From the NCBI GenBank assembly GCA_047284725.1, contig JBJBEO010000001.1, positions 760,202 to 824,201 of the forward strand: a DNA stretch of 64,000 nucleotides, written 5' to 3'. The notes under the pieces are model-generated. The model saw only the letters and a list, made by a program, of their open reading frames with translations. It searched no databases and was not told the origin of the DNA. Below are positions 6,472-64,000 of the stretch, piece by piece; positions within the stretch are counted from its first letter, which is position 1, and the number at the start of each line of letters is the position of its first letter. The position numbers and the translations under genes are program-made. The DNA is from Synechococcus sp. (GTDB taxonomy: Bacteria > Cyanobacteriota > Cyanobacteriia > PCC-6307 > Cyanobiaceae).

Positions 6472-6550
6472 CAGCCTCCCGGGGAAGCGCACCCGCCGGT
6501 GTAAGGTATTCAGGTCGAAGGCCAAGCCTGAGGGTGTTGCCGACGATCAT

Positions 6551-6623
6551 GGGGCCATAGCTCAGCTGGTAGAGCACCTGCATGGCATGCAGGGGGTCAG
6601 GAGTTCGAGTCTCCTTGGCTCCA
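6551..6623 (+). tRNA. tRNA-Ala(GGC)
   Basis: GGGGCCATAGCTCAGCTGGTAGAGC...; anticodon arm CCTGC-AT-GGC-AT-GCAGG; T-loop GTTCGAG; ends GGCTCCA. Confidence 0.97.
6577..6623 (+). repeat. att core, left copy (3' 47 bp of tRNA-Ala)
   Basis: CCTGCATGGCATGCAGGGGGTCAGGAGTTCGAGTCTCCTTGGCTCCA, identical to 32806-32852. Confidence 0.95.
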
Positions 6624-6718
6624 TTCTTAAAAGCCCAGTTAACCACTGGTTTTTTGGCGGCTTCAAGACCGCTTTTTTGTTGTCCGACTACGGCTGGCTA
6701 TGGCCTGTTAGGGCTGTT

Positions 6719-6765: not shown

Positions 6766-8034
6766 ATGCCTGCCCAGAAGTGGGAAAAGACCCTTCGTCA
6801 GCAGATCAGGGACAACCACGGCAATGGTTGGAACGTCATTGCTCAGAGCGGCAAGACCAAGCTCACTCGCCGGTATGAAGACGGCAGCAAAAGCGCCAAG
6901 GTGCTTCCAATCGAATGGAAAGCAACCAACAGCGTCGAGATCCTCAATGCCGTCACAAGGTGCCGTGAGCTTTGTGAAAGCAGGAACATCAGCCTTGCTG
7001 AGGCAGTCCGTTTGGACACAGAGACGCTTTCTGTCCCTGATGACCACAACGGCACTGCCAACCAAGGTTGGCCAGCTGTTGTTGAGGAGTACCTAGCCAC
7101 CAAGCAAGGTCGCCGCAGCACGACGCTTGCTGACCTCAGAACACGTCTGAAGCGTGTTTTGAGGTGTATGGAAAGCAGACCAAAGCCACGCGATTCAAGG
7201 GCGCTTCTTAAGCGGTTTGCGGAACTGCACTTCACCGACATGGCACCAGGTGGCCAGGGTCGAAAACGGAACCTTGGTGATGCCTGCGCCTTTTTGACTT
7301 ACGCAGTCAACAAAGCTGGTGCGCCACAGCGTTGGTTGCCGCCAGAAAAGGCGTTCATCAATGAGCTGATCGGTGTTGCCGCTACATCTACAGAGGAACG
7401 CTTAACGCCTCCCGTAAAACCTGCAGACCTTGCTGCGTTGCTTGATCAAATGGAAGCCGATGGTCGTCATGACCTTCGACTTGCTGTTGGTCTTGTCGCG
7501 CTGTTTGGTCTTCGACCAGCTGAGCTGGCCGTGTTGAAAGTCAAGGGCGACAAGCTCTATTGCGGCCACGTCAAACGCAATGCAGCAACGCTGGCGCAGA
7601 AAGCAAAGCCACCTAGACGTTGCTTGCCATTGGACATCGCTGGCCGTGAAGGCGAAGGCAAGCGTCTACTGCAGCTGTATTCATCCGGGTTGGTGAAGTT
7701 GCCTGCAGCTGTGTTGAACGAAATCAGCAAGGTCGACTCCAAAGGGACTTTTCAGGAAGTCGGCCATGCGTTTGGTCAGCTGCTGAAGCGTTATGAGCCT
7801 TGGAAAAATTTGGTTCGTGCGAATGAAGGCGTTACGCCTTATTCGTTGAGGCATTCATGGGCATGGCGCTGCCACGTTTGCTCAAATAATGCTTTGCACG
7901 TTCGGCAAGCAGCTGCGCTTATGGGTCATACCGTCGCAGTTCATCTGAAGAATTACGGCACGTGGGTTGATGAAGCCAGTCTGGAAGCGGCTGTTGAGCG
8001 ATACAACGAAGGTTTGGTCCCTGTTAATCAGTGA
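6766..8034 (+). CDS. Tyrosine recombinase/integrase
   Basis: GLRPAEL (Arg I), YSLRHSW (Arg II) and LMGH...HLKNY (catalytic Tyr); adjacent to the tRNA. Confidence 0.93.
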   Translation: MPAQKWEKTLRQQIRDNHGNGWNVIAQSGKTKLTRRYEDGSKSAKVLPIEWKATNSVEILNAVTRCRELCESRNISLAEAVRLDTETLSVPDDHNGTANQGWPAVVEEYLATKQGRRSTTLADLRTRLKRVLRCMESRPKPRDSRALLKRFAELHFTDMAPGGQGRKRNLGDACAFLTYAVNKAGAPQRWLPPEKAFINELIGVAATSTEERLTPPVKPADLAALLDQMEADGRHDLRLAVGLVALFGLRPAELAVLKVKGDKLYCGHVKRNAATLAQKAKPPRRCLPLDIAGREGEGKRLLQLYSSGLVKLPAAVLNEISKVDSKGTFQEVGHAFGQLLKRYEPWKNLVRANEGVTPYSLRHSWAWRCHVCSNNALHVRQAAALMGHTVAVHLKNYGTWVDEASLEAAVERYNEGLVPVNQ

Positions 8035-8765: not shown

Positions 8766-9476
8766 ATGACTGCCCAAAAATTGAGCAGCCAAGAGGCCCG
8801 TGTTCCCTCAAGGCTAAGTGAAACCCTGCTAGGTAGGCAGGGTGTCAGTGCACCCAAATCAACTGATACAACTAGTAGGTCTAGACCTACAAAACCGCGT
8901 TTAGGTCAGTTTTTAGAGCAGAAGCTGACCAGATCAGGACGTAAGACCCCATGCGCTTGTGGTCGCGTCAAAGACGGTGACTGCCGCTTCAGCGACAACA
9001 CACTGTTCTGCCACAACAGCCCGCTGCAGGACCAATTCCGGTGGCGTGGTCAAACGTGGTTCTTGCATCGCACCAACTGCGGCCATACGGGCGCTTGCAA
9101 CCTCTACAAGCCATGGCCGCCAGCAGATCAACGCCGTTGCCATAGGCCATCGGCAAAACGCCATGTCAGCACTAGATGGCGACGGCTCTTGCCTCAGTTC
9201 ATTTCTGAATGGCGGGAGGCAATGGCGTGCCCTGAATTTGAACTGTGCAGTCCCGATGAGCTGCGCCACTACTTCAAGGCCATTTACCGGGCGGAATACA
9301 AGGGCGAACAGCTGTTGCCGCTGTTGGTTGATGCCGCCAGGCACAACCCCCAATACCGGCAGTTTGTCATCGCTGTGCAGCACAAGCTCAAGACCTTGCG
9401 ATACCAACGCCGTGACGTTGATTGCTTCCGCAAAAACGATCTCGGCTGTCCTGAACTCAACGGGTGGCTGTCATGA
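8766..9476 (+). CDS. Putative primase-associated Zn-finger protein
   Basis: PCACGRVKDGDCR...LFCH Cys/His cluster; ATGA overlap with the AAA gene. Confidence 0.55.
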   Translation: MTAQKLSSQEARVPSRLSETLLGRQGVSAPKSTDTTSRSRPTKPRLGQFLEQKLTRSGRKTPCACGRVKDGDCRFSDNTLFCHNSPLQDQFRWRGQTWFLHRTNCGHTGACNLYKPWPPADQRRCHRPSAKRHVSTRWRRLLPQFISEWREAMACPEFELCSPDELRHYFKAIYRAEYKGEQLLPLLVDAARHNPQYRQFVIAVQHKLKTLRYQRRDVDCFRKNDLGCPELNGWLS

Positions 9477-10492
9477 GCGAATACGACTTCAACCCTCTTG
9501 ATGACCTGATTGACAAAGGTGCTCAGGGGTGTGTGCACGAACTAGGAAAAATCTGGCGAGTGTTCCTGATTGCTGTCAGCGGCATTGTTCTGCTGGCCGC
9601 TGAACGTGGCACCGGCAAGACCACGTTCGTTAATCGGTTCCTTGAGGCGATCCAAGAAGGCTTTGACTTCCTAGGTGCGTTCAAGGTCACCAAGGGCAGG
9701 TGCCTGTTGATCCAAGGTGATGAGCCCAAAGAGCATGCTCAAGCCGTCTACAGGCAGCAAGAACTAAAGCAGAACTGGGATGTCATCTACCCGAAGGAGC
9801 CATTCCCAGTTGAATTGCTCCTGAAGGCCATTGAGTCAAAGCAGTACGACGCAATCTGCATCGACTCTTTGACCACTGTTCTATGCAGTGAGAGCAGGCG
9901 GACGGTTGATTCAGAACTGGTCGACCTGCTTTACGAGTTGAACAAGGCGGCAGTTGATGCTGGCGTCTTGATCCTTATGACTGCCCACCTCATCAAGGCT
10001 CCAAAAGACGGCAATGGCGTTCGGCAGCGCCGCCAAACAGTTCAGTGGGATGACATCGCTGGCCTTGGAACCATCAGTGCAGCAGTTCAAGACTGCTGGG
10101 GTTTAGCTCCAGCAGGTCAGTACTTCAGCCTGCATGCCCTGGGCAAACGGAACATCAAAGAGGGCACCAAATGGTTGCTGGATCGTGAGGCTGAATCCTT
10201 TGACTGGTGGTTGATTGACGATCAAGACCAGCAGCTACCCGAGGAACGACAACTGCTTTCAGATCAGATCCTGAGCCATGTCAAACAACATGGCTACTGC
10301 TCGATTGCTGACCTCACTAAGGCCACTAGAGCTGATGCGGAATACATCCGCGTTTGCTGTGTTGACCTGTTCACGCAGGGCAAGCTGCAGCGCCACAAGA
10401 GGAAGTCAAATGAGGATCCCCCAAAGCGGGGCAGACCTGCCTTCCTATACGGCGTTGGTGATTTTTCCTGTATTACGCACACAGGCCCCTGA
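9473..10492 (+). CDS. AAA ATPase/RepA-like helicase with C-terminal HTH
   Basis: Walker A AERGTGKT, Walker B ICIDSL, ILMTAHLIK; C-terminal wHTH ending in RGRP. Confidence 0.8.
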   Translation: MSEYDFNPLDDLIDKGAQGCVHELGKIWRVFLIAVSGIVLLAAERGTGKTTFVNRFLEAIQEGFDFLGAFKVTKGRCLLIQGDEPKEHAQAVYRQQELKQNWDVIYPKEPFPVELLLKAIESKQYDAICIDSLTTVLCSESRRTVDSELVDLLYELNKAAVDAGVLILMTAHLIKAPKDGNGVRQRRQTVQWDDIAGLGTISAAVQDCWGLAPAGQYFSLHALGKRNIKEGTKWLLDREAESFDWWLIDDQDQQLPEERQLLSDQILSHVKQHGYCSIADLTKATRADAEYIRVCCVDLFTQGKLQRHKRKSNEDPPKRGRPAFLYGVGDFSCITHTGP

Positions 10493-10557
10493 ACGACTGT
10501 TCCGTACATCGGTGGTGAAGACGATCCGGCATGGGGTCCACGTCCGGAGGTCATCTA

Positions 10558-10872
10558 ATGGCCAGGCGTACCAAAGCTGAAATCGATCACATCAAGCTCT
10601 CCATCTACAGGCTATGTGAGCGGTATCGCCCCATGACCGTGCGGCAGTTGTTTTATGCACTGACCGTTGAACAGGTCATCCCCAAAACTGAGGGTGGCTA
10701 CAAGAACATCGTTTGCCGCCTCACTAAAGAGATGCGGCTTGCTGGTGAGCTGCCTTGGCACTGGCTTGCTGACCACACCCGTTGGATGCGTAAGCCAGAC
10801 ACCTACGGCAGTCTTCATGACTGCTTGGAACAAGCTCAGCTCGCTTACAGACGGGCTGCTGCCATGACTTAA
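10558..10872 (+). pseudogene. Truncated mobile-element protein (N-terminal part only)
   Basis: PMTVRQLFYAL...MRLAGELPWHWLADHTR...AYRR resembles the N-terminus of a longer MGE family that usually continues into a Toprim-like domain; stops right after YRR, where the cargo begins. Confidence 0.55.
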
Positions 10873-11095: not shown

Positions 11096-12130
11096 CTAAT
11101 GATAGCGAAGGTGATTATTCTCGTAATTCTTCTGAAGCTGCGTGAGCCTTACGGTCAGGCTGTTGAATCGCTCCATTGCGCGGTTGTTTGACGAGTCAAA
11201 TAGATCACCTCTGATTTCTGAGCTGTACTGCAAGAAATGCTTTGGCTCACATCCATTTCGACCTTGCCAGCTATGAAAGTCACTATGGATCGAAGATTCG
11301 ATAACAAGAATATTGTCATGAAAGTCAGCAAGGTCAGGGCGATTCGATTTATCAAACAAATGATGCCCATCCAGGCTCAGCTCCCGACCACGGGCTTTCT
11401 TTTTCCCCGTGACTTGGCAAGTATCCCTCGCCGCACGCTTCGCTTTCGCGACTGCCTTGTCGATTCGCAGTGGCGCAGCCTCAAGTCTCTTGATTTCTGT
11501 TTTAAAGCAATCCTCAACCACCTCCCCAACGGCACCCACCCAGGCTTTTCTCGCTTTGGTAATGCTTGAGTTGTGGCTCATGTCTACAGCCATACTGGCG
11601 AGACCTTTTTGGCTCCAGATCTTTTCCCCCTCGTCGCTGAGTAGAAAGTGTTTTTCTATCTCAAGCCCTTCTTCCCCATCAAGCAACCCTGTGTGACAGA
11701 GTCTTTCGATTGAGTTATTGATGCCTCGTCCATTTGTCTGCAGAATATTGATGCAGGTCTTTCTACTGACAAATCCTAATTCTCCGCGAACTGCAAGCAA
11801 CGAGCCTGTCTCAATCAGCTCTTGAGTAATGCGCCTTGAGACAAGCATTTGCTTGCGACGGCGACGACGATGCGTCAAAGCCTCTGCAACTAGCTTGATT
11901 AACCCTGGCGTATTTCGGTCAAAGTATTCAGCCAGTGCTTCCACGCCTTCTTCGTAAAACCGGCGCTCGCGATACTCCCCTGAACGCGTGGTGAACTCAA
12001 AGTGCTCTCCTTCGTTTAGCTCCCACTCGTCTTTGTCATCAGAATCAAAGAAATCGATGGTCTTGTAAAGCGTATCGATTCGCTTCCCAAGAATCTTGGC
12101 GGTTTCCTTGTCGGTCAATAGGTCGCGCAT
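11096..12130 (-). CDS. Putative HNH endonuclease with two tandem N-terminal DNA-binding-like repeats
   Basis: C-terminal CQVTG...LDGHHLF...DNILVIESSIHSDFH; repeats LNEGEHF..FYEEGVEALA and LEIEKHF..WSQKGLASMA; GAGGAGG SD upstream. Confidence 0.75.
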   Translation of the reverse strand: MRDLLTDKETAKILGKRIDTLYKTIDFFDSDDKDEWELNEGEHFEFTTRSGEYRERRFYEEGVEALAEYFDRNTPGLIKLVAEALTHRRRRRKQMLVSRRITQELIETGSLLAVRGELGFVSRKTCINILQTNGRGINNSIERLCHTGLLDGEEGLEIEKHFLLSDEGEKIWSQKGLASMAVDMSHNSSITKARKAWVGAVGEVVEDCFKTEIKRLEAAPLRIDKAVAKAKRAARDTCQVTGKKKARGRELSLDGHHLFDKSNRPDLADFHDNILVIESSIHSDFHSWQGRNGCEPKHFLQYSSEIRGDLFDSSNNRAMERFNSLTVRLTQLQKNYENNHLRYH

Positions 12131-12142
12131 GGAATTACCTCC

Positions 12143-12715
12143 TCAATTCATTAATGCAAGGACTGAATCACGCATCTTCTGAAGCCTCGCGAAGACTCTT
12201 GGATCCCCTCCCGCATCAGGATGGTGCACCTTGACTAGATCCCTAAAAGAAGCTTTCACGTCTTCGGCTGTTGCCTTCTTAGGGTCTAGACCAAAGACAT
12301 GCCAAGGGCGGAAGTTTTCGAGGACGTCGATGCCGTTTATGCATGTTGGACCGCTCTTGTTCCTTTCATCCTCTGGAACGGCGACCCACCTTCTATAGAG
12401 TTTTATCCAGTCATCCTTGGTCTTAAGACTGAATTCTTCGCCAGTCATCGACATCATAAAGGTCTTATTATTTCTCAGCTCTGTCGCGTTCTTGCAGTCA
12501 AACTTGTCAAGAACTGCCTTTTTGGCTGTGGTCATAGTCATTGCTTTTGCCTTTGGTTTCGGCGGTTCTTTGAAGGCAGACCCATTAACTCTCTCGGCAA
12601 ATGCGAGCAATGCATTATGAGTTATCGATCCCGATTGAAGCAGGTCTTGAATCAGAAGCTCCACTTCTGGCTTGGTCAGCTTTTTGGCTCGTGCTGCAGC
12701 CACAGGGAACTCCAC
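12143..12715 (-). CDS. C-terminal J-domain (DnaJ-like) protein
   Basis: PWHVFGL...VKASFRDLVKVHHPDAGGD with intact HPD; GTG start at 12715 preceded by AGGAG (alternative ATG at 12745). Confidence 0.85.
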   Translation of the reverse strand: MEFPVAAARAKKLTKPEVELLIQDLLQSGSITHNALLAFAERVNGSAFKEPPKPKAKAMTMTTAKKAVLDKFDCKNATELRNNKTFMMSMTGEEFSLKTKDDWIKLYRRWVAVPEDERNKSGPTCINGIDVLENFRPWHVFGLDPKKATAEDVKASFRDLVKVHHPDAGGDPRVFARLQKMRDSVLALMN

Positions 12716-13002
12716 GCTTACTCCTAAGGTAAAAAAAGAAGGCATTAGAGCTGAGCAGCTTTAGATTGATCTAATTTTTTTTGTTACATCAACCCAACGT
12801 CCTGGCGAGTCCAATATCCATCACGACCTCTATTTACGACATGCCTAATTCAATCAAGCAAAGCCATTGGTCGCCTAACAGACAATCAAGCCTAGATGGT
12901 ATTAGTAGCAATAACGATTACGCGATACCAGCTCTCGGCTTGACGTAATTACCGTTACGGCAAGTGCTCAGCGCCGCCAGCTGAATGGTGTTGATGACGC
13001 AC

Positions 13003-13467
13003 TCAGCCTTTCAACTTCTGATCCTCTGACACATTTGACTGCAGCGCCATCAATCGTCTCACGCTCACAACCCGCTGGCCATTGCTCTGGATCCGTCCTG
13101 CAGCAACCCAAACCGGTGCAGCTGGACCGTTGTAAACCTCGCTCGCGCTGCCATCGCCATTGATCCGCAGCACCAACAGATGATCAGATTCTGGCTCCCT
13201 CCCACGCAGGAAGATCTTATTCCCCTCAACTGTGGCTTTGATTTCTACTGACCGGTCGGTGGCCTTGTGGTGAGCATCGATGCCCTTAGTGCTGGCCGTG
13301 GTCAGTTCCAAGCCATATCGAGCTGCAGCGACGGCCTCGCCAATACTTCCCACTAGATGACCATCCGGGGTGAAGTGACGACCAGGTGCTGCAGCCTCAA
13401 GGGCCTTGATGATCTTGAACAGCTCTGGCACCAACCGCAGCACTTCTCTTGCGTCAATTGGAGCCAT
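13003..13467 (-). CDS. PD-(D/E)xK nuclease-like protein (DUF6998-like)
   Basis: FTPDGHLVGSIGE...GIDA...VEIKAT motifs; start at MAPIDA is inferred. Confidence 0.7.
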   Translation of the reverse strand: MAPIDAREVLRLVPELFKIIKALEAAAPGRHFTPDGHLVGSIGEAVAAARYGLELTTASTKGIDAHHKATDRSVEIKATVEGNKIFLRGREPESDHLLVLRINGDGSASEVYNGPAAPVWVAAGRIQSNGQRVVSVRRLMALQSNVSEDQKLKG

Positions 13468-13696
13468 CAGAAAGCCTCTGCAGTGGTCTTCAACATCCCT
13501 CACACCTGGATAGCCGCAATGCCCTCAACTCCGAGGCACGTATTTACGGAACGGGTGGCTTGGCTTGTCCGCATGCCTGCCGCGCTCGCAAGCAATCAAA
13601 TCAAGTCAGAAAAGTGAGCGCATCAGAACAAATAGCAGCCTTTTCAATTCTACAACCTCAGCAAAGACATGCGGAATTAAAAGGTTTACGATCTAA

Positions 13697-14605
13697 TTAA
13701 ACTAAAATGGTCTTCATTTTCGCCTCAACGGAGTCAACCAAAGAGGCAATTCGACCTATAAGCTCAAAACAATCTCCAGCAGTCAAATTAATTGGTTTTC
13801 CTTGCTTGTCAAAGCCAGCCCTATGGACACAATCATTGCGAATATCGAGACTGCGGAACCAACTCCCTCTCTCCTTGTGTTCGCCATACACATTGATATG
13901 AGCAACAGCAGAAAACATCTTGTCAATTTTGTCAATACGATGAAAAACTATACCTTCTAAAGCCTTATCCACCCTACCCGGGATGAGCACCTTTTTCTTG
14001 TATTCATCCTGAAGCCTCTTCAGGCTTAGCTCATCAGCCTTGCCACTTAACACCATATCGACACACTCTTTTTGCATGCCATCATTTACATAGCCTCCTT
14101 GATGAAGAGCAAGCTTCACCTTTGCTTCATCGTTAGACAACACATAATGCTTGAAAACAGATTCCAAATAACCCTCTAATATCGCAAAAGCCGAAACAAA
14201 ACAGCTGCGGAAAAGAGCCTGCTGAAGCTCCGCATTTCTGGACAGAGGCGAATTATCACGCAGACCAAGCAAATCCTTTACCGAATCCAGCTGCTTCAAC
14301 ACGTCTAAACGGCGAGGAGAATTATCACGAAACCAATCAACATCATCATCCCAAGGCTCACACCATTCAATGTCATCTTGATCGACTCCCGGGATGGAGC
14401 AGTAAAGATGATAATAGTCATTGCATATTTCTATAGCAAACTCTCGACCACAGTCAGGACAAAGAAGAGAATCCTCGGAATAGCTTTGAGAATCTTGCAG
14501 CTTTTCCGCAGAGAAGTTAGGAGAGGGAACATCGAGAGAACCCTGAATTAGAGAGTTGCAACTCGCACAATGAAAATGAATGGTGGAACGCAAGCTCAAG
14601 AACAA
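13697..14605 (-). CDS. Zn-ribbon + HEPN domain protein (putative RNase)
   Basis: CASC...CPDC Zn ribbon, ILEGYLE helix and RNDCVH (Rx4H) motif. Confidence 0.7.
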   Translation of the reverse strand: MFLSLRSTIHFHCASCNSLIQGSLDVPSPNFSAEKLQDSQSYSEDSLLCPDCGREFAIEICNDYYHLYCSIPGVDQDDIEWCEPWDDDVDWFRDNSPRRLDVLKQLDSVKDLLGLRDNSPLSRNAELQQALFRSCFVSAFAILEGYLESVFKHYVLSNDEAKVKLALHQGGYVNDGMQKECVDMVLSGKADELSLKRLQDEYKKKVLIPGRVDKALEGIVFHRIDKIDKMFSAVAHINVYGEHKERGSWFRSLDIRNDCVHRAGFDKQGKPINLTAGDCFELIGRIASLVDSVEAKMKTILV

Positions 14606-32805: not shown

Positions 32806-32852
32806 CCTGCATGGCATGCAGGGGGTCAGGAGTTCGAGTCTCCTTGGCTCCA
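32806..32852 (+). repeat. att core, right copy (partial tRNA-Ala)
   Basis: 47/47 identity to 6577-6623; lacks the tRNA 5' part. Confidence 0.95.
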
Positions 32853-55939: not shown

Positions 55940-58900
55940 TTAGAGATTGAGCAGGCTGAGATCCTGGTCATCCTGGCTGGTGGGATCACTTGCTGGAGTC
56001 AGTCCATCTTGAGCTTCTTCCAAGACAGGAGCCGTGGTCTTTTTGTCGTCAGTTGGGGTTGTCTCGCTGAACGCATCATGGGTTGGCGTGACAGGGATGG
56101 ACGCTGGATCAAGGGAGGGGCCAGGTTGAGGGTCGCTCGCATTGATTGAGCTTTCGGCATCACTTCCATTGGCCTCGTGGTTGTGATTCAGTGCGGAGAG
56201 GTCATCGGGGTGGAGTTGCTGCAGGTCGCTGAGGGCAGCAGAGAGGGCATCACCATTCAATGCGGGAGATGCCGATGGCTCTGCCTGGTTGTAATCGCTG
56301 GCATGATCTGTGTCTGACTGTTGAGCCGACTGACTGGGATCGCTGAAGACTGACTTGGCATCGTCATCCTCGCTGTCAGGATTGTCCCCTTCTTGCTTGA
56401 AGATTCCTTTTTTATCGAGTGAATCTCTGCTTGCTTGGGAGTTACTCCCAGGGATGCTTTGGCTCAATGGCTCAGTGGATGTTTCGCGATCGAGCTGATT
56501 GGACATCTTCTCTTCCAAGGAAGCCGTGTCTGTCGACGCTGTGTCTGCTGCAGTGTTGCTCGAAGCATCGATCTCTTGGGTATTGGCTAAGGCATCAGTT
56601 GCAAGGAAGCTTCCGTCGTTCTTCTCGCTTGTATCGGTCGGGTCAGAGTTATCTGCTTGGTCGTCATGATCTTGGCCGCTACTTTTCTGGTCTTGGTTTT
56701 CACTTTTCGTCTTTGTCTTAATGCTCACATCAAGGCTTGATTGTGCTGAATCGGTGTCGTCTTCCTGTGACTCGATGATTTCAAAGCTGTTTAGTTGTGC
56801 TACAACGTCGACGGTCTCAATTTGTTGTGGTTCGTCCGAGGCGGATGCTGTTGGGCCATGAGGAGTCGGACTATGATTTTGGCTCCATGCACTGCCAGAC
56901 TTTTGTAAGCCCCAGTCACTGGGTATGTTGTGAACTGCGATAACACTGCCATCCCTAAATCTATATCCGGTTATCGCAGAATGCGGAGACCTTCCTTCAT
57001 GATAGGTTTCTACTATATCGCCATGATTGTCATTGTGCCCTCCATCGATCTGAGGTGTTTGTGGTGATTGTGGTGTTTGTGGTGTTTGTGGATGTTGCGG
57101 TTGTGGTGGTGGATCTCCTTTGAAGGATAGTCTTGTCCCGATATTGATAGAAGCTCGATCTAAGGCCTTATCCCCATCTCGATCGGTGATGGTGTCTGTG
57201 CGTGTGAGTTGAATAAGGTCGGCATCACTTAAGGTTTTGGTTTGTGCTCCTTGAGGGTGTTCGATATTTCGAATTTGAGAGAGTGTTGCGATGCCCGTTT
57301 GTGAATTAACGCTAAAGGTGAAGGCTGGTGTGCCTTGTGGGTCAGGTGCTGAGCCGGAGCCGACGCGTCCGATGACCTGGCCGTGCTCGAGGTAGAGGAA
57401 GACGTGTTGTCCTGTGGCGGTGTCGACAACACCACTGTCAACGCCTCTACTTCGAACAGACAAAGCGTAGGAACTGTGGATTGATCCACTGCCATCCGCG
57501 CCGTAGTCGCTAGAGATGCGTTCGAAGTCATCTGAGAAGTTGGCCGTTTTATGATTCGGCCCTAAATGATCGTTCTTTAGCCCAGCAGTGTGGATGCCGA
57601 TATCAATTGAGGGCCCGTCATCTTTGAAGGAGACGGCGCCAGAGAGATCAACGGATTGTGAGGCTGTATCCCCGTCGTTATCGGTGACGGTGGCTTGGAG
57701 CTTGATGGATCCAGCCGAGAGGTTTTTGGCCTCATCAGGGGATGAGGTTCCGCCAGTTGGGTGTACGAGAGATCGGATCTGATCGAGGGTGACGTCTCCG
57801 TTTGTTGCAACGGAGAGTGTGAAGGCTGGTTTGCCTTGTGGGTCAGGTGCTGAGCCGGAGCCGACGCGTCCGATGACCTGTCCGTGCTCGAGGTAGAGGA
57901 AGACGGGTTGTCCTGTGGCGGTGTCGACGACGCCGCTGTCGGTGCGAGATGTCAGGACGAGTGAGTAATCGAGGGATTGTTGCTGATCAGCACCAGCGTC
58001 GATGGTGAAGAGGGAAGAGAAGTTAGTGGTGTGATCTGTGCCGAGGTGGGTTTCGTCGACTTGTAGGGAGTCAGCTGTAGCGGGAGTGACTGTGATTGAG
58101 GGCCCGTCATCTTTGAAGGAGACGGCGCCAGAGAGATCAACGGATTGTGAGGCTGTATCCCCGTCGTTATCGGTGACGGTGGCTTGGAGCTTGATGGATC
58201 CAGCCGAGAGGTTTTTGGCCTCATCAGGGGATGAGGTTCCGCCAGTTGGGTGTACGAGAGATCGGATCTGATCGAGGGTGACGTCTCCGTTTGTTGCAAC
58301 GGAGAGTGTGAAGGCTGGTTTGCCTTGTGGGTCAGGTGCTGAGCCGGAGCCGACGCGTCCGATGACCTGTCCGTGCTCGAGGTAGAGGAAGACGGGTTGT
58401 CCTGTGGCGGTGTCGACGACGCCGCTGTCGGTGCGAGATGTCAGGACGAGTGAGTAATCGAGGGATTGTTGCTGATCAGCACCAGCGTCGATGGTGAAGA
58501 GGGAAGAGAAGTTAGTGGTGTGATCTGTGCCGAGGTGGGTTTCGTCGACTTGTAGGGAGTCAGCTGTAGCGGGAGTGACTGTGATTGAGGGCCCGTCATC
58601 TTTGAAGGAGACGGCGCCAGAGAGATCAACGGATTGTGAGGCTGTATCCCCGTCGTTATCGGTGACGGTGGCTTGGAGCTTGATGGATCCAGCCGAGAGG
58701 TTTTTGGCCTCATCAGGGGATGAGGTTCCGCCAGTTGGGTGTACGAGAGATCGGATCTGATCGAGGGTGACGTCTCCGTTTGTTGCAACGGAGAGTGTGA
58801 AGGCTGGTTTGCCTTGTGGGTCAGGTGCTGAGCCGGAGCCGACGCGTCCGATGACCTGTCCGTGCTCGAGGTAGAGGAAGACGGGTTGTCCTGTGGCGGT

Positions 58901-61900
58901 GTCGACGACGCCGCTGTCGGTGCGAGATGTCAGGACGAGTGAGTAATCGAGGGATTGTTGCTGATCAGCACCAGCGTCGATGGTGAAGAGGGAAGAGAAG
59001 TTAGTGGTGTGATCTGTGCCGAGGTGGGTTTCGTCGACTTGTAGGGAGTCAGCTGTAGCGGGAGTGACTGTGATTGAGGGCCCGTCATCTTTGAAGGAGA
59101 CGGCGCCAGAGAGATCAACGGATTGTGAGGCTGTATCCCCGTCGTTATCGGTGACGGTGGCTTGGAGCTTGATGGATCCAGCCGAGAGGTTTTTGGCCTC
59201 ATCAGGGGATGAGGTTCCGCCAGTTGGGTGTACGAGAGATCGGATCTGATCGAGGGTGACGTCTCCGTTTGTTGCAACGGAGAGTGTGAAGGCTGGTTTG
59301 CCTTGTGGGTCAGGTGCTGAGCCGGAGCCGACGCGTCCGATGACCTGTCCGTGCTCGAGGTAGAGGAAGACGGGTTGTCCTGTGGCGGTGTCGACGACGC
59401 CGCTGTCGGTGCGAGATGTCAGGACGAGTGAGTAATCGAGGGATTGTTGCTGATCAGCACCAGCGTCGATGGTGAAGAGGGAAGAGAAGTTAGTGGTGTG
59501 ATCTGTGCCGAGGTGGGTTTCGTCGACTTGTAGGGAGTCAGCTGTAGCGGGAGTGACTGTGATTGAGGGCCCGTCATCTTTGAAGGAGACGGCGCCAGAG
59601 AGATCAACGGATTGTGAGGCTGTATCCCCGTCGTTATCGGTGACGGTGGCTTGGAGCTTGATGGATCCAGCCGAGAGGTTTTTGGCCTCATCAGGGGATG
59701 AGGTTCCGCCAGTTGGGTGTACGAGAGATCGGATCTGATCGAGGGTGACGTCTCCGTTTGTTGCAACGGAGAGTGTGAAGGCTGGTTTGCCTTGTGGGTC
59801 AGGTGCTGAGCCGGAGCCGACGCGTCCGATGACCTGTCCGTGCTCGAGGTAGAGGAAGACGGGTTGTCCTGTGGCGGTGTCGACGACGCCGCTGTCGGTG
59901 CGAGATGTCAGGACGAGTGAGTAATCGAGGGATTGTTGCTGATCAGCACCAGCGTCGATGGTGAAGAGGGAAGAGAAGTTAGTGGTGTGATCTGTGCCGA
60001 GGTGGGTTTCGTCGACTTGTAGGGAGTCAGCTGTAGCGGGAGTGACTGTGATTGAGGGCCCGTCATCTTTGAAGGAGACGGCGCCAGAGAGATCAACGGA
60101 TTGTGAGGCTGTATCCCCGTCGTTATCGGTGACGGTGGCTTGGAGCTTGATGGATCCAGCCGAGAGGTTTTTGGCCTCATCAGGGGATGAGGTTCCGCCA
60201 GTTGGGTGTACGAGAGATCGGATCTGATCGAGGGTGACGTCTCCGTTTGTTGCAACGGAGAGTGTGAAGGCTGGTTTGCCTTGTGGGTCAGGTGCTGAGC
60301 CGGAGCCGACGCGTCCGATGACCTGTCCGTGCTCGAGGTAGAGGAAGACGGGTTGTCCTGTGGCGGTGTCGACGACGCCGCTGTCGGTGCGAGATGTCAG
60401 GACGAGTGAGTAATCGAGGGATTGTTGCTGATCAGCACCAGCGTCGATGGTGAAGAGGGAAGAGAAGTTAGTGGTGTGATCTGTGCCGAGGTGGGTTTCG
60501 TCGACTTGTAGGGAGTCAGCTGTAGCGGGAGTGACTGTGATTGAGGGCCCGTCATCTTTGAAGGAGACGGCGCCAGAGAGATCAACGGATTGTGAGGCTG
60601 TATCCCCGTCGTTATCGGTGACGGTGGCTTGGAGCTTGATGGATCCAGCCGAGAGGTTTTTGGCCTCATCAGGGGATGAGGTTCCGCCAGTTGGGTGTAC
60701 GAGAGATCGGATCTGATCGAGGGTGACGTCTCCGTTTGTTGCAACGGAGAGTGTGAAGGCTGGTTTGCCTTGTGGGTCAGGTGCTGAGCCGGAGCCGACG
60801 CGTCCGATGACCTGTCCGTGCTCGAGGTAGAGGAAGACGGGTTGTCCTGTGGCGGTGTCGACGACGCCGCTGTCGGTGCGAGATGTCAGGACGAGTGAGT
60901 AATCGAGGGATTGTTGCTGATCAGCACCAGCGTCGATGGTGAAGAGGGAAGAGAAGTTAGTGGTGTGATCTGTGCCGAGGTGGGTTTCGTCGACTTGTAG
61001 GGAGTCAGCTGTAGCGGGAGTGACTGTGATTGAGGGCCCGTCATCTTTGAAGGAGACGGCGCCAGAGAGATCAACGGATTGTGAGGCTGTATCCCCGTCG
61101 TTATCGGTGACGGTGGCTTGGAGCTTGATGGATCCAGCCGAGAGGTTTTTGGCCTCATCAGGGGATGAGGTTCCGCCAGTTGGGTGTACGAGAGATCGGA
61201 TCTGATCGAGGGTGACGTCTCCGTTTGTTGCAACGGAGAGTGTGAAGGCTGGTTTGCCTTGTGGGTCAGGTGCTGAGCCGGAGCCGACGCGTCCGATGAC
61301 CTGTCCGTGCTCGAGGTAGAGGAAGACGGGTTGTCCTGTGGCGGTGTCGACGACGCCGCTGTCGGTGCGAGATGTCAGGACGAGTGAGTAATCGAGGGAT
61401 TGTTGCTGATCAGCACCAGCGTCGATGGTGAAGAGGGAAGAGAAGTTAGTGGTGTGATCTGTGCCGAGGTGGGTTTCGTCGACTTGTAGGGAGTCAGCTG
61501 TAGCGGGAGTGACTGTGATTGAGGGCCCGTCATCTTTGAAGGAGACGGCGCCAGAGAGATCAACGGATTGTGAGGCTGTATCCCCGTCGTTATCGGTGAC
61601 GGTGGCTTGGAGCTTGATGGATCCAGCCGAGAGGTTTTTGGCCTCATCAGGGGATGAGGTTCCGCCAGTTGGGTGTACGAGAGATCGGATCTGATCGAGG
61701 GTGACGTCTCCGTTTGTTGCAACGGAGAGTGTGAAGGCTGGTTTGCCTTGTGGGTCAGGTGCTGAGCCGGAGCCGACGCGTCCGATGACCTGTCCGTGCT
61801 CGAGGTAGAGGAAGACGGGTTGTCCTGTGGCGGTGTCGACGACGCCGCTGTCGGTGCGAGATGTCAGGACGAGTGAGTAATCGAGGGATTGTTGCTGATC

Positions 61901-64000
61901 AGCACCAGCGTCGATGGTGAAGAGGGAAGAGAAGTTAGTGGTGTGATCTGTGCCGAGGTGGGTTTCGTCGACTTGTAGGGAGTCAGCTGTAGCGGGAGTG
62001 ACTGTGATTGAGGGCCCGTCATCTTTGAAGGAGACGGCGCCAGAGAGATCAACGGATTGTGAGGCTGTATCCCCGTCGTTATCGGTGACGGTGGCTTGGA
62101 GCTTGATGGATCCAGCCGAGAGGTTTTTGGCCTCATCAGGGGATGAGGTTCCGCCAGTTGGGTGTACGAGAGATCGGATCTGATCGAGGGTGACGTCTCC
62201 GTTTGTTGCAACGGAGAGTGTGAAGGCTGGTTTGCCTTGTGGGTCAGGTGCTGAGCCGGAGCCGACGCGTCCGATGACCTGTCCGTGCTCGAGGTAGAGG
62301 AAGACGGGTTGTCCTGTGGCGGTGTCGACGACGCCGCTGTCGGTGCGAGATGTCAGGACGAGTGAGTAATCGAGGGATTGTTGCTGATCAGCACCAGCGT
62401 CGATGGTGAAGAGGGAAGAGAAGTTAGTGGTGTGATCTGTGCCGAGGTGGGTTTCGTCGACTTGTAGGGAGTCAGCTGTAGCGGGAGTGACTGTGATTGA
62501 GGGCCCGTCATCTTTGAAGGAGACGGCGCCAGAGAGATCAACGGATTGTGAGGCTGTATCCCCGTCGTTATCGGTGACGGTGGCTTGGAGCTTGATGGAT
62601 CCAGCCGAGAGGTTTTTGGCCTCATCAGGGGATGAGGTTCCGCCAGTTGGGTGTACGAGAGATCGGATCTGATCGAGGGTGACGTCTCCGTTTGTTGCAA
62701 CGGAGAGTGTGAAGGCTGGTTTGCCTTGTGGGTCAGGTGCTGAGCCGGAGCCGACGCGTCCGATGACCTGTCCGTGCTCGAGGTAGAGGAAGACGGGTTG
62801 TCCTGTGGCGGTGTCGACGACGCCGCTGTCGGTGCGAGATGTCAGGACGAGTGAGTAATCGAGGGATTGTTGCTGATCAGCACCAGCGTCGATGGTGAAG
62901 AGGGAAGAGAAGTTAGTGGTGTGATCTGTGCCGAGGTGGGTTTCGTCGACTTGTAGGGAGTCAGCTGTAGCGGGAGTGACTGTGATTGAGGGCCCGTCAT
63001 CTTTGAAGGAGACGGCGCCAGAGAGATCAACGGATTGTGAGGCTGTATCCCCGTCGTTATCGGTGACGGTGGCTTGGAGCTTGATGGATCCAGCCGAGAG
63101 GTTTTTGGCCTCATCAGGGGATGAGGTTCCGCCAGTTGGGTGTACGAGAGATCGGATCTGATCGAGGGTGACGTCTCCGTTTGTTGCAACGGAGAGTGTG
63201 AAGGCTGGTTTGCCTTGTGGGTCAGGTGCTGAGCCGGAGCCGACGCGTCCGATGACCTGTCCGTGCTCGAGGTAGAGGAAGACGGGTTGTCCTGTGGCGG
63301 TGTCGACGACGCCGCTGTCGGTGCGAGATGTCAGGACGAGTGAGTAATCGAGGGATTGTTGCTGATCAGCACCAGCGTCGATGGTGAAGAGGGAAGAGAA
63401 GTTAGTGGTGTGATCTGTGCCGAGGTGGGTTTCGTCGACTTGTAGGGAGTCAGCTGTAGCGGGAGTGACTGTGATTGAGGGCCCGTCATCTTTGAAGGAG
63501 ACGGCGCCAGAGAGATCAACGGATTGTGAGGCTGTATCCCCGTCGTTATCGGTGACGGTGGCTTGGAGCTTGATGGATCCAGCCGAGAGGTTTTTGGCCT
63601 CATCAGGGGATGAGGTTCCGCCAGTTGGGTGTACGAGAGATCGGATCTGATCGAGGGTGACGTCTCCGTTTGTTGCAACGGAGAGTGTGAAGGCTGGTTT
63701 GCCTTGTGGGTCAGGTGCTGAGCCGGAGCCGACGCGTCCGATGACCTGTCCGTGCTCGAGGTAGAGGAAGACGGGTTGTCCTGTGGCGGTGTCGACGACG
63801 CCGCTGTCGGTGCGAGATGTCAGGACGAGTGAGTAATCGAGGGATTGTTGCTGATCAGCACCAGCGTCGATGGTGAAGAGGGAAGAGAAGTTAGTGGTGT
63901 GATCTGTGCCGAGGTGGGTTTCGTCGACTTGTAGGGAGTCAGCTGTAGCGGGAGTGACTGTGATTGAGGGCCCGTCATCTTTGAAGGAGACGGCGCCAGA
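55940..64000 (-). CDS. Giant repetitive adhesin-like protein (DUF5801-like repeats); 5' end lies beyond the window
   Basis: Manual translation shows the frame of 55940-57463 stays open through the repeat unit, with no stop and no in-frame ATG/GTG/TTG; unit DDGPSITVT...VDET...DSGVVDTATG...TDNDGD...SFK. Confidence 0.88.
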   Translation of the reverse strand, partial: SGAVSFKDDGPSITVTPATADSLQVDETHLGTDHTTNFSSLFTIDAGADQQQSLDYSLVLTSRTDSGVVDTATGQPVFLYLEHGQVIGRVGSGSAPDPQGKPAFTLSVATNGDVTLDQIRSLVHPTGGTSSPDEAKNLSAGSIKLQATVTDNDGDTASQSVDLSGAVSFKDDGPSITVTPATADSLQVDETHLGTDHTTNFSSLFTIDAGADQQQSLDYSLVLTSRTDSGVVDTATGQPVFLYLEHGQVIGRVGSGSAPDPQGKPAFTLSVATNGDVTLDQIRSLVHPTGGTSSPDEAKNLSAGSIKLQATVTDNDGDTASQSVDLSGAVSFKDDGPSITVTPATADSLQVDETHLGTDHTTNFSSLFTIDAGADQQQSLDYSLVLTSRTDSGVVDTATGQPVFLYLEHGQVIGRVGSGSAPDPQGKPAFTLSVATNGDVTLDQIRSLVHPTGGTSSPDEAKNLSAGSIKLQATVTDNDGDTASQSVDLSGAVSFKDDGPSITVTPATADSLQVDETHLGTDHTTNFSSLFTIDAGADQQQSLDYSLVLTSRTDSGVVDTATGQPVFLYLEHGQVIGRVGSGSAPDPQGKPAFTLSVATNGDVTLDQIRSLVHPTGGTSSPDEAKNLSAGSIKLQATVTDNDGDTASQSVDLSGAVSFKDDGPSITVTPATADSLQVDETHLGTDHTTNFSSLFTIDAGADQQQSLDYSLVLTSRTDSGVVDTATGQPVFLYLEHGQVIGRVGSGSAPDPQGKPAFTLSVATNGDVTLDQIRSLVHPTGGTSSPDEAKNLSAGSIKLQATVTDNDGDTASQSVDLSGAVSFKDDGPSITVTPATADSLQVDETHLGTDHTTNFSSLFTIDAGADQQQSLDYSLVLTSRTDSGVVDTATGQPVFLYLEHGQVIGRVGSGSAPDPQGKPAFTLSVATNGDVTLDQIRSLVHPTGGTSSPDEAKNLSAGSIKLQATVTDNDGDTASQSVDLSGAVSFKDDGPSITVTPATADSLQVDETHLGTDHTTNFSSLFTIDAGADQQQSLDYSLVLTSRTDSGVVDTATGQPVFLYLEHGQVIGRVGSGSAPDPQGKPAFTLSVATNGDVTLDQIRSLVHPTGGTSSPDEAKNLSAGSIKLQATVTDNDGDTASQSVDLSGAVSFKDDGPSITVTPATADSLQVDETHLGTDHTTNFSSLFTIDAGADQQQSLDYSLVLTSRTDSGVVDTATGQPVFLYLEHGQVIGRVGSGSAPDPQGKPAFTLSVATNGDVTLDQIRSLVHPTGGTSSPDEAKNLSAGSIKLQATVTDNDGDTASQSVDLSGAVSFKDDGPSITVTPATADSLQVDETHLGTDHTTNFSSLFTIDAGADQQQSLDYSLVLTSRTDSGVVDTATGQPVFLYLEHGQVIGRVGSGSAPDPQGKPAFTLSVATNGDVTLDQIRSLVHPTGGTSSPDEAKNLSAGSIKLQATVTDNDGDTASQSVDLSGAVSFKDDGPSITVTPATADSLQVDETHLGTDHTTNFSSLFTIDAGADQQQSLDYSLVLTSRTDSGVVDTATGQPVFLYLEHGQVIGRVGSGSAPDPQGKPAFTLSVATNGDVTLDQIRSLVHPTGGTSSPDEAKNLSAGSIKLQATVTDNDGDTASQSVDLSGAVSFKDDGPSITVTPATADSLQVDETHLGTDHTTNFSSLFTIDAGADQQQSLDYSLVLTSRTDSGVVDTATGQPVFLYLEHGQVIGRVGSGSAPDPQGKPAFTLSVATNGDVTLDQIRSLVHPTGGTSSPDEAKNLSAGSIKLQATVTDNDGDTASQSVDLSGAVSFKDDGPSITVTPATADSLQVDETHLGTDHTTNFSSLFTIDAGADQQQSLDYSLVLTSRTDSGVVDTATGQPVFLYLEHGQVIGRVGSGSAPDPQGKPAFTLSVATNGDVTLDQIRSLVHPTGGTSSPDEAKNLSAGSIKLQATVTDNDGDTASQSVDLSGAVSFKDDGPSITVTPATADSLQVDETHLGTDHTTNFSSLFTIDAGADQQQSLDYSLVLTSRTDSGVVDTATGQPVFLYLEHGQVIGRVGSGSAPDPQGKPAFTLSVATNGDVTLDQIRSLVHPTGGTSSPDEAKNLSAGSIKLQATVTDNDGDTASQSVDLSGAVSFKDDGPSIDIGIHTAGLKNDHLGPNHKTANFSDDFERISSDYGADGSGSIHSSYALSVRSRGVDSGVVDTATGQHVFLYLEHGQVIGRVGSGSAPDPQGTPAFTFSVNSQTGIATLSQIRNIEHPQGAQTKTLSDADLIQLTRTDTITDRDGDKALDRASINIGTRLSFKGDPPPQPQHPQTPQTPQSPQTPQIDGGHNDNHGDIVETYHEGRSPHSAITGYRFRDGSVIAVHNIPSDWGLQKSGSAWSQNHSPTPHGPTASASDEPQQIETVDVVAQLNSFEIIESQEDDTDSAQSSLDVSIKTKTKSENQDQKSSGQDHDDQADNSDPTDTSEKNDGSFLATDALANTQEIDASSNTAADTASTDTASLEEKMSNQLDRETSTEPLSQSIPGSNSQASRDSLDKKGIFKQEGDNPDSEDDDAKSVFSDPSQSAQQSDTDHASDYNQAEPSASPALNGDALSAALSDLQQLHPDDLSALNHNHEANGSDAESSINASDPQPGPSLDPASIPVTPTHDAFSETTPTDDKKTTAPVLEEAQDGLTPASDPTSQDDQDLSLLNL
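57606..64000. repeat. Tandem array of 13 complete 489-bp repeats plus 38 bp
   Basis: ATTGAGGGCCCGTC recurs at 57606, 58095 ... 63963; shadow ORFs are identical in each unit; one diverged unit at ~57115-57605. Confidence 0.95.

Follow-up and report, generated by a model that had tools for sequence, protein, structure and literature searches.

What would a gene for a J-domain co-chaperone be doing directly ahead of a gene for a predicted HNH nuclease in an integrated element of Synechococcus sp.? The question is raised by a stretch of 64,000 nucleotides (the window; GenBank assembly GCA_047284725.1, contig JBJBEO010000001.1, positions 760,202 to 824,201), in which a first-pass annotation made from the sequence alone had noticed such a pair and read it as a nuclease gated by the chaperone DnaK. 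The pair was found to be conserved and tightly coupled across cyanobacteria, and it is accessory and mobile. It is a real gene pair, undescribed in the literature and libraries searched, and the results suggest an undescribed anti-phage system with a possible viral counter-measure. The two genes and their translation signals are as follows.

11096..12130, minus strand: HNH nuclease gene, 344 amino acids (open reading frame, homologues and model)
12143..12703, minus strand: J-domain partner gene, 186 amino acids from the likely GTG start, the reading frame being open to ATG 12745 (homologue lengths and starts; model with a predicted local distance difference test score, pLDDT, of 88)
12138..12144, minus strand: GAGGAGG, ribosome-binding site for the nuclease, which overlaps the stop codon of J (sequence)
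12710..12713, minus strand: GGAG, likely ribosome-binding site of the J gene (sequence)

The co-oriented genes, the 12-nt gap between their open reading frames (12131-12142) and the GAGGAGG Shine-Dalgarno sequence, all reported at first pass, were confirmed by the open reading frame map and the sequence. GAGGAGG stands 7 nt ahead of the nuclease ATG, and translation of the two genes is likely coupled through its overlap with the J stop codon. The J reading frame is real and co-oriented as annotated, and its start needs correction. From the first ATG it runs over 12143-12745 on the minus strand (200 amino acids); GTG 12703 (186 amino acids) is the likelier start because most homologues are about 186 amino acids long and begin there, and GGAG is found 6 nt upstream. 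The layout is that of a type II toxin-antitoxin locus: a coupled two-gene operon with the partner, in the antidote position, first.

Pairing was followed in genome and metagenome samples that overlap and contain related, non-independent members, so the counts below are not additive. In a phylum sample of 401 genomes the nuclease matched 27 genomes with a single query and 30 with a profile. The single query gave 28 loci, 23 with a J homologue upstream; the other five were a divergent nuclease beside a J-domain protein (L026), three broken fragments and one short distant HNH protein. Every full-length nuclease in this sample had a J-domain gene upstream. Among 301 genomes of the family, the nuclease matched 72 and the pre-J domain (the middle part of the J protein) 65. 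J lies directly upstream at 66 of 68 full-length nuclease loci; of the other two, one lies at a contig edge and one is a remnant with a 5' deletion. A full-length nuclease accompanies 66 of 69 strong J loci. These counts exclude 17 weaker nuclease rows and three weak J rows. Among the best 80 of 132 J loci from 185,579 species genomes, 79 have the nuclease downstream. The metagenome set (80 loci kept of 117, seven of them too short) gave the nuclease at 73 of 73 J loci with at least 200 nt of downstream room. Conserved co-occurrence, which the first-pass annotation had put up for checking, is thus observed from both sides. Intact J genes standing without a nuclease do exist (L037 and L051). 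Two candidates were set aside: L366, considered as an intact nuclease gene free of J, is the product of a 5' deletion, and L027 (190 amino acids) is a distant HNH protein and not a full nuclease member.

The pair has a patchy range, with 72 of the 301 family genomes positive, 6 of 33 in the genus and 0 of 40 in genus g4, and its neighbours are not fixed. At 80 loci, 791 neighbouring open reading frames fell into 656 clusters, the commonest present at eight loci, and no conserved third gene was found beside the pair. Several marine loci adjoin integrase or primase genes, many filamentous loci sit among core genes, and some genomes hold two divergent copies of the pair. The titled loci seen among the best 80 of 132 are cyanobacterial, apart from L092, L094 and one 'uncultured bacterium'; L092 and L094 carry non-cyanobacterial titles yet group inside the freshwater picocyanobacterial clade and are likely mis-binned.

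Three loci of unusual build were noted. At L026 (123-1848) the divergent nuclease is joined by a J-domain protein whose N-terminus is unlike the pre-J family, followed by a methyltransferase-like reading frame; this suggests that the J requirement outlasts an exchange of partner. At L129 (8581-10935) the nuclease is fused in frame to a sigma-70 (RpoD-like) protein and a second sigma-70 gene lies just upstream of J, the result either of a real duplication and fusion or of mis-assembly. P0390, examined as a natural J-nuclease fusion, was rejected: J is joined there behind an unrelated HNH-HIT fragment in what looks like a read-through chimera.

The J protein can be divided into an N-terminal hairpin, the pre-J domain and the J-domain.

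12584..12673, minus strand: N-terminal helical hairpin, residues 11-40 (outside the predicted interface; absent from phage copies of known context)
12320..12541, minus strand: pre-J domain, residues 55-128 (most of the predicted nuclease-binding surface; also present in phage head-cluster proteins)
12146..12319, minus strand: J-domain, residues 129-186 (Pfam DnaJ, fold match)
12215..12223, minus strand: HPD motif, residues 161-163 (invariant in 37 aligned proteins)

The J-domain with an intact HPD that had been claimed from the sequence stands. DnaJ was matched in 37 of 37 family members, the window protein scoring under the curated cut-off (E 3e-4), and the C-terminal fold matches 6jmg_B (VIA Z 8.6, root-mean-square deviation 2.2, 67 residues aligned). 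HPD is present at 79 of 80 J loci. With its helical fold and intact HPD the protein is a predicted class C J-domain protein. The pre-J domain matched no known family, and no relatives of it were found by PDB sequence, Atlas (best 0.83) or fold search; the domain was not folded by itself, so these searches do not make its fold a new one.

The nuclease consists of two similar modules, a long helix and a C-terminal HNH domain.

11912..12127, minus strand: winged-helix module 1, residues 2-73, whose acidic loop is conserved (repeat profile, fold, charge)
11570..11785, minus strand: winged-helix module 2, residues 116-187, the predicted J docking site (repeat profile, fold, complex model)
11231..11428, minus strand: HNH domain, HH-x15-N-x8-H-x3-H with C238 and C294 (motif conservation, fold)

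The internal repeat seen at first pass is real (profile-profile probability 94.6%, E 6.6e-8, against a maximum of 0.85% over 30 column shuffles). Its likening to ORF6N did not hold: ORF6N (PF10543) gave no candidate in the genome at E<=10, with a control that matched in 7 of 14 genomes, and it is not among the 25 families displayed for 44 nuclease members. By fold the modules are MerR-type winged helices, the best match being the ParA2 N-terminal domain (Z 8.1, root-mean-square deviation 1.7, 60 residues aligned), followed by GlnR, RacA and MerR regulators at Z 4-6. Module 1 has a mean charge of -5.6 to -5.7 and is net negative in 93-94% of 86 homologues; DNA binding by this module is doubtful because of its conserved acidic loop, and it may instead bind protein. 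Module 2 is near neutral with a basic helix. Residues 192-233, previously called a coiled coil, form a single 42-residue helix in the monomer model (pLDDT 88.8, predicted template modelling score 0.81).

The C-terminal HNH motif, also named at first pass, was well supported. C238, H256, H257, N273, H282, H286 and C294 are each kept in 86-88 of 88 aligned homologues, and 83 of the 88 have the complete motif. The model contains the beta-beta-alpha elements (strands 253-257 and 274-278, helix 279-289), and fold matches of the domain to HNH proteins recur at a middling Z of 4.5-5.8. Weak HNH_2 scores were found in 14 of 44 members. The HH-N-H-H spacing resembles that of colicin E7/E9. With the metal site and the beta-beta-alpha fold of the HNH (His-Me finger) group, the protein is predicted to be a nuclease.

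That the pair carried no recognized name was borne out. PADLOC-DB 2.0.0 gave no family at E<=1 for either protein, and the nuclease had no match in NCBIfam, in PHROGs or, above cut-off, in Pfam. The nuclease likewise had no PDB sequence match and no BFVD fold match at E<=0.001. Neither the pair nor the phage module discussed below was found described in the literature searched; supplements were not covered, and a defence-prediction table could hold the pair.

Do the two proteins bind each other? The predicted J-nuclease complex scored 0.84, the best of three controls scoring 0.00, and thus passed the structural check put forward with the first-pass annotation. Of 157 solved complexes 116 attain the mark used, as do 2 of 215 mismatched pairs; these counts hold only approximately with our own alignments. 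The runs agree in at least 98% of contacts, with partner pLDDT at least 85. Confident contacts fall within J residues 67-142 and 176-186; in the nuclease they fall within residues 116-118 and 145-186, which belong to module 2, and 198-209, which belong to the long helix. Neither the N-terminal hairpin nor the HPD nor the HNH active site is among the confident contacts, though residues not named may still touch. J is thus predicted to bind module 2 of the nuclease directly. The solved J/MerR-fold complex CbpA-CbpM could have aided the prediction by likeness, though its interface is the DnaK face (PMC4063869, in the text available).

The J module is also found in phages. A scan of viral contigs placed J residues ~48-186 at the C-terminus of proteins of 918-931 amino acids with LPD1. 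Scanning with the pre-J domain turned up 20 IMG/VR loci, in every one of which the HPD is present and the nuclease absent: 19 related proteins of 918-932 amino acids and one of 351. LPD1 is above cut-off in the carriers L136 and L144. At L223 and L216 the J-module gene is surrounded by head genes (terminase, portal and MuF-like), a setting that in the available text of PMC5512222 is the context of injected polyvalent proteins and is taken by Iyer et al. to mean virion packaging. The phage carriers are multi-domain, contain an LPD and are encoded among virion genes, as polyvalent proteins are. Two phage records (100% and 96% complete) had no nuclease match; the nuclease had none in viral contigs either, in a search run without a positive control. 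Four further long proteins hold the J module (P0391, P0392, P0394 and P0395); for P0395 a viral locus was sought and none was found. Genome G450 has a prophage-like region (L364:4854-11894) with a 261-amino-acid version of the module encoded immediately behind the portal gene. The genome further holds two pairs whose HPD and HNH motifs are intact and which are 50% and 42% identical to the prophage module. As side observations, module-bearing phages encode a sigma factor in the interval from terminase to portal, and their head cluster includes a starvation-inducible (Dps-like) gene (L223:2630-3625; L216:8583-9020).

Phage copies of known context have no N-terminal hairpin. Their predicted interface is complete: every confident J contact falls in the part retained by phages. 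In a quick tree (130 columns, midpoint root) they sit inside the picocyanobacterial J clade (Shimodaira-Hasegawa approximate likelihood ratio test 94), which favours, without proving, capture from host to phage; hosts also acquire polyvalent-protein domains from prophages (PMC5512222, as far as its accessible text goes). Several independent captures were considered and not supported (approximately unbiased test, p 0.074 for one clade). The module in phage head clusters suggests a tie between the pair and phage conflict, and does so better than the argument first offered.

We propose that the pair is a DnaK-linked toxin-antidote HNH nuclease which serves to defend against phage and against which phages deliver a mimic of the antidote; we hold this proposal to be evenly poised. 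J would bind the second winged-helix module, as the complex model predicts, and its free HPD would recruit DnaK, which would hold the nuclease inactive. The nuclease would be toxic and J its inhibitor, not its activator. This reading of J as antidote is suggested by an asymmetry: intact J orphans exist, and a full-length nuclease is almost never found without J. Infection may release the nuclease, for instance when phage protein synthesis draws off DnaK; alternatively, a phage protein may bind the acidic module 1. The phage J-module protein would be packaged, injected and bound to the host nuclease as a mimic of the antidote. The DnaK-gated nuclease of the first-pass annotation survives in so far as a complex with the HPD outside its confident interface fits DnaK-linked control; it loses the ORF6N identity and the defence-island setting. 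A bolder form of the proposal is that a private Hsp70 co-chaperone serves as DNase antidote linked to free DnaK, so that chaperone drain senses infection, and that cyanophages stole its nuclease-binding half and inject it on head-packaged proteins to disarm the nuclease. This form is tentative and leans to the unlikely side.

Several results weigh against the proposal. The interface residues are not kept better than expected in phage copies (p 0.29-0.48), and those of the nuclease show no conservation above the average (0.39 vs 0.43). Phage copies share 45-72% identity with the window protein over the J-domain and a lower 35-55% over the pre-J domain, a pattern compatible with plain DnaK recruitment. 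Viral contigs commonly carry generic J-domains (230 relatives turned up in the viral scan). The phage module itself is rare, mostly one set of related 918-932-amino-acid proteins, and had no match in 50,697 GenBank phage records. Two metagenome-assembled loci have a broken J beside a motif-intact nuclease, L056 by a premature TAG and L064 by a frameshift in an A run, possibly through assembly error. The enrichment in defence islands put up for checking at first pass was not seen: at E<=1e-8 PADLOC matched 17 of the 150 nearest representatives of neighbouring genes, and 11 of 112 control open reading frames taken from 20 arbitrary stretches. Finally, no shared operator motif stood out in 65 upstream regions.

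Of 272 nearby representatives, 150 were scanned with PADLOC and 90 of these with Pfam as well. One strong PADLOC match (MzaA) is a sigma factor by Pfam. Restriction-modification genes lie near a minority of pairs (a type I methyltransferase cluster at four loci, a type I restriction subunit at two and a type II methyltransferase at one). Among the upstream regions the top 7-mer occurred in 13 of 65 against a shuffle maximum of 12, and 6-bp inverted repeats in 52 of 65 against 39.6 when shuffled. Promoter and terminator scans stayed at chance level. RNA contigs from three studies span both genes of locus L102 plus flanks, so they do not demonstrate transcription, and a fourth run gave no cover. 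A short repeated element lies just downstream of the nuclease gene at this locus (L102:9624-9654) and occurs elsewhere in RNA contigs.

Among the alternatives, the one that survives best, which we still consider unlikely, is a selfish addiction module: J would be the antidote, the nuclease would kill cells from which the element has been lost, without any role specific to phages, and phages would have taken J only for DnaK recruitment in assembly or ejection. Scattered sites, the mobile-element context and the two divergent copies in some genomes would all be expected of it, as would the lack of defence enrichment and the higher identity of phage copies in the J-domain. Phage J proteins with roles in host takeover or assembly are discussed in the consulted text of PMC12619734. 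Phages, however, retain the whole pre-J domain, at the identity given above, and it is not obviously needed for DnaK recruitment alone; the nuclease had no match in 72,556 plasmid records, and the missing operator motif counts against addiction too.

Activation by J is a less probable alternative still. J would hand the nuclease to DnaK, which would remodel it from an inactive to an active form, and the phage copy would serve another client or compete as a dominant negative. DnaJ and DnaK remodel the tandem winged-helix plasmid initiators RepE and RepA, and the tandem winged-helix anatomy of the nuclease invites the analogy. The HPD is conserved and outside the confident interface, J leaves the active site uncovered, and the intact nucleases beside broken J genes at L056 and L064 also agree with activation. 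The asymmetry between intact J orphans and the near absence of a full-length nuclease without J points the other way, and the phage copies keep a working-looking HPD, which would turn the host nuclease on the phage. A last alternative, very improbable, is a stress module like CbpA/CbpM or Atc, or else a cassette of the homing type. Its MerR-fold part would modulate the co-chaperone or bind DNA, and the HNH domain would nick a specific site for spread or repair. The order of a J gene and then a MerR-fold gene, as in cbpA-cbpM (PMC7074700, available text), and the many filamentous loci among core genes would suit it. Against it, CbpM covers the DnaK-binding face of CbpA (PMC4063869), whereas the HPD here is not in the confident interface; the patchy range of the pair contrasts with Atc, described as vertically inherited in the text seen of 10.64898/2026.09.07.749886; and no conserved insertion site was found.

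In the window the pair belongs to a 26-kb integrated element of a complete 2.58-Mb host genome, which judging by homologues is that of a marine picocyanobacterium. The borders are an identical 47-bp repeat of the 3' part of tRNA-Ala (window 6577-32852).

6550-6624: tRNA-Ala(GGC), which holds the left copy of the 47-bp stretch
6577..6623, plus strand: left attachment repeat, within tRNA-Ala(GGC) (sequence comparison)
32806..32852, plus strand: right attachment repeat, 47 bp, identical (sequence comparison)
6766..8034, plus strand: likely tyrosine integrase (weak Pfam Phage_integrase match, E 0.027; position by the tRNA)
9464..10492, plus strand: AAA_25 helicase-like replication gene (Pfam E 2.6e-10)

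The order is likely integrase, small genes, AAA_25 gene and toprim-like fragment, then the pair on the opposite strand. The pair does come after the integrase and replication genes, in agreement with its early placement at the head of the cargo. The layout is reminiscent of tycheposon-type elements. The label 'satellite' is unproven. The toprim-like gene (window 10531-10872; PHROG 6247, 303 positions) ends after 113 amino acids, some 220 nt short of where the nuclease gene ends, and was possibly cut when the cassette arrived. Two defence-like genes adjoin the pair at window 13003-14605, a DUF6998 gene (weak type II methyl-directed restriction match) and a RiboL-PSP-HEPN-like gene. Elsewhere, window 58001-64000 shows a strong and very even GC skew (~0.33) across 6 kb, typical of a long repetitive gene.

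If the pair is a DnaK-linked toxin-antidote nuclease turned against phages, a dedicated J-domain protein would be both nuclease antidote and chaperone-load sensor, a defence logic new to the libraries and papers searched and present in about one quarter of the picocyanobacterial genomes sampled. It would also yield a phage counter-defence protein with a predictable target and give the J-domain of phage polyvalent proteins a concrete job. Two cultured-strain records (L062 and L102) carry the pair, so ordinary genetics could be applied.

How does the pair compare with known systems? It belongs to none of the toxin-antitoxin-chaperone (TAC), Atc and bNACHT25 systems, in which each ingredient of the proposed mechanism has a precedent. 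HigBAC and CmdTAC (10.1101/2024.02.24.581848, in the text at hand) also tie a chaperone component to a toxin, with anti-phage activity triggered via the chaperone; they have three genes, a SecB-like chaperone, a ChAD-tailed antitoxin and toxins that target translation, whereas the pair has only two, one for an HNH nuclease, the putative toxin, and one for a J-domain co-chaperone that is predicted to bind it directly. AtcJABC of Shewanella (10.64898/2026.09.07.749886; PMC6715715, the parts available) shares a short dedicated J-domain protein, which recruits DnaK and relieves the toxicity of its operon partner AtcB. It is a four-gene, vertically inherited system with RNA polymerase as its target and a role in cold adaptation; the pair, in contrast, has a nuclease and no adaptor gene and is patchy and mobile. 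As in CbpA-CbpM of E. coli (PMC4063869; PMC7074700), a J-protein gene is followed by a MerR-fold partner, which binds J there and is predicted to do so here. CbpM blocks the DnaK face of an N-terminal J-domain, with no nuclease in the text of PMC4063869 consulted; the J-domain of the pair is C-terminal with its HPD predicted to be free, and its partner combines two MerR-like modules with an HNH domain. The bNACHT25 system, in which host DnaJ mediates phage sensing (PMC12169576), links chaperone state to anti-phage activation through a J-protein, as is proposed for the pair; it employs the housekeeping DnaJ and an NLR-like ATPase, with no dedicated co-encoded J protein in the available text. 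The HH-N-H-H metal site and fold are like those of the EcoKMcrA and Cas9 HNH domains (Z 5.5-5.8), and the nuclease differs from these and from colicin E7/E9-type enzymes in its tandem winged-helix N-terminus and J partner. Like the phage polyvalent proteins of PMC5512222, whose main text is without the terms 'J domain' and 'DnaJ' (supplements lay outside that word search), the 918-932-amino-acid carriers hold LPD1 and sit among head genes.

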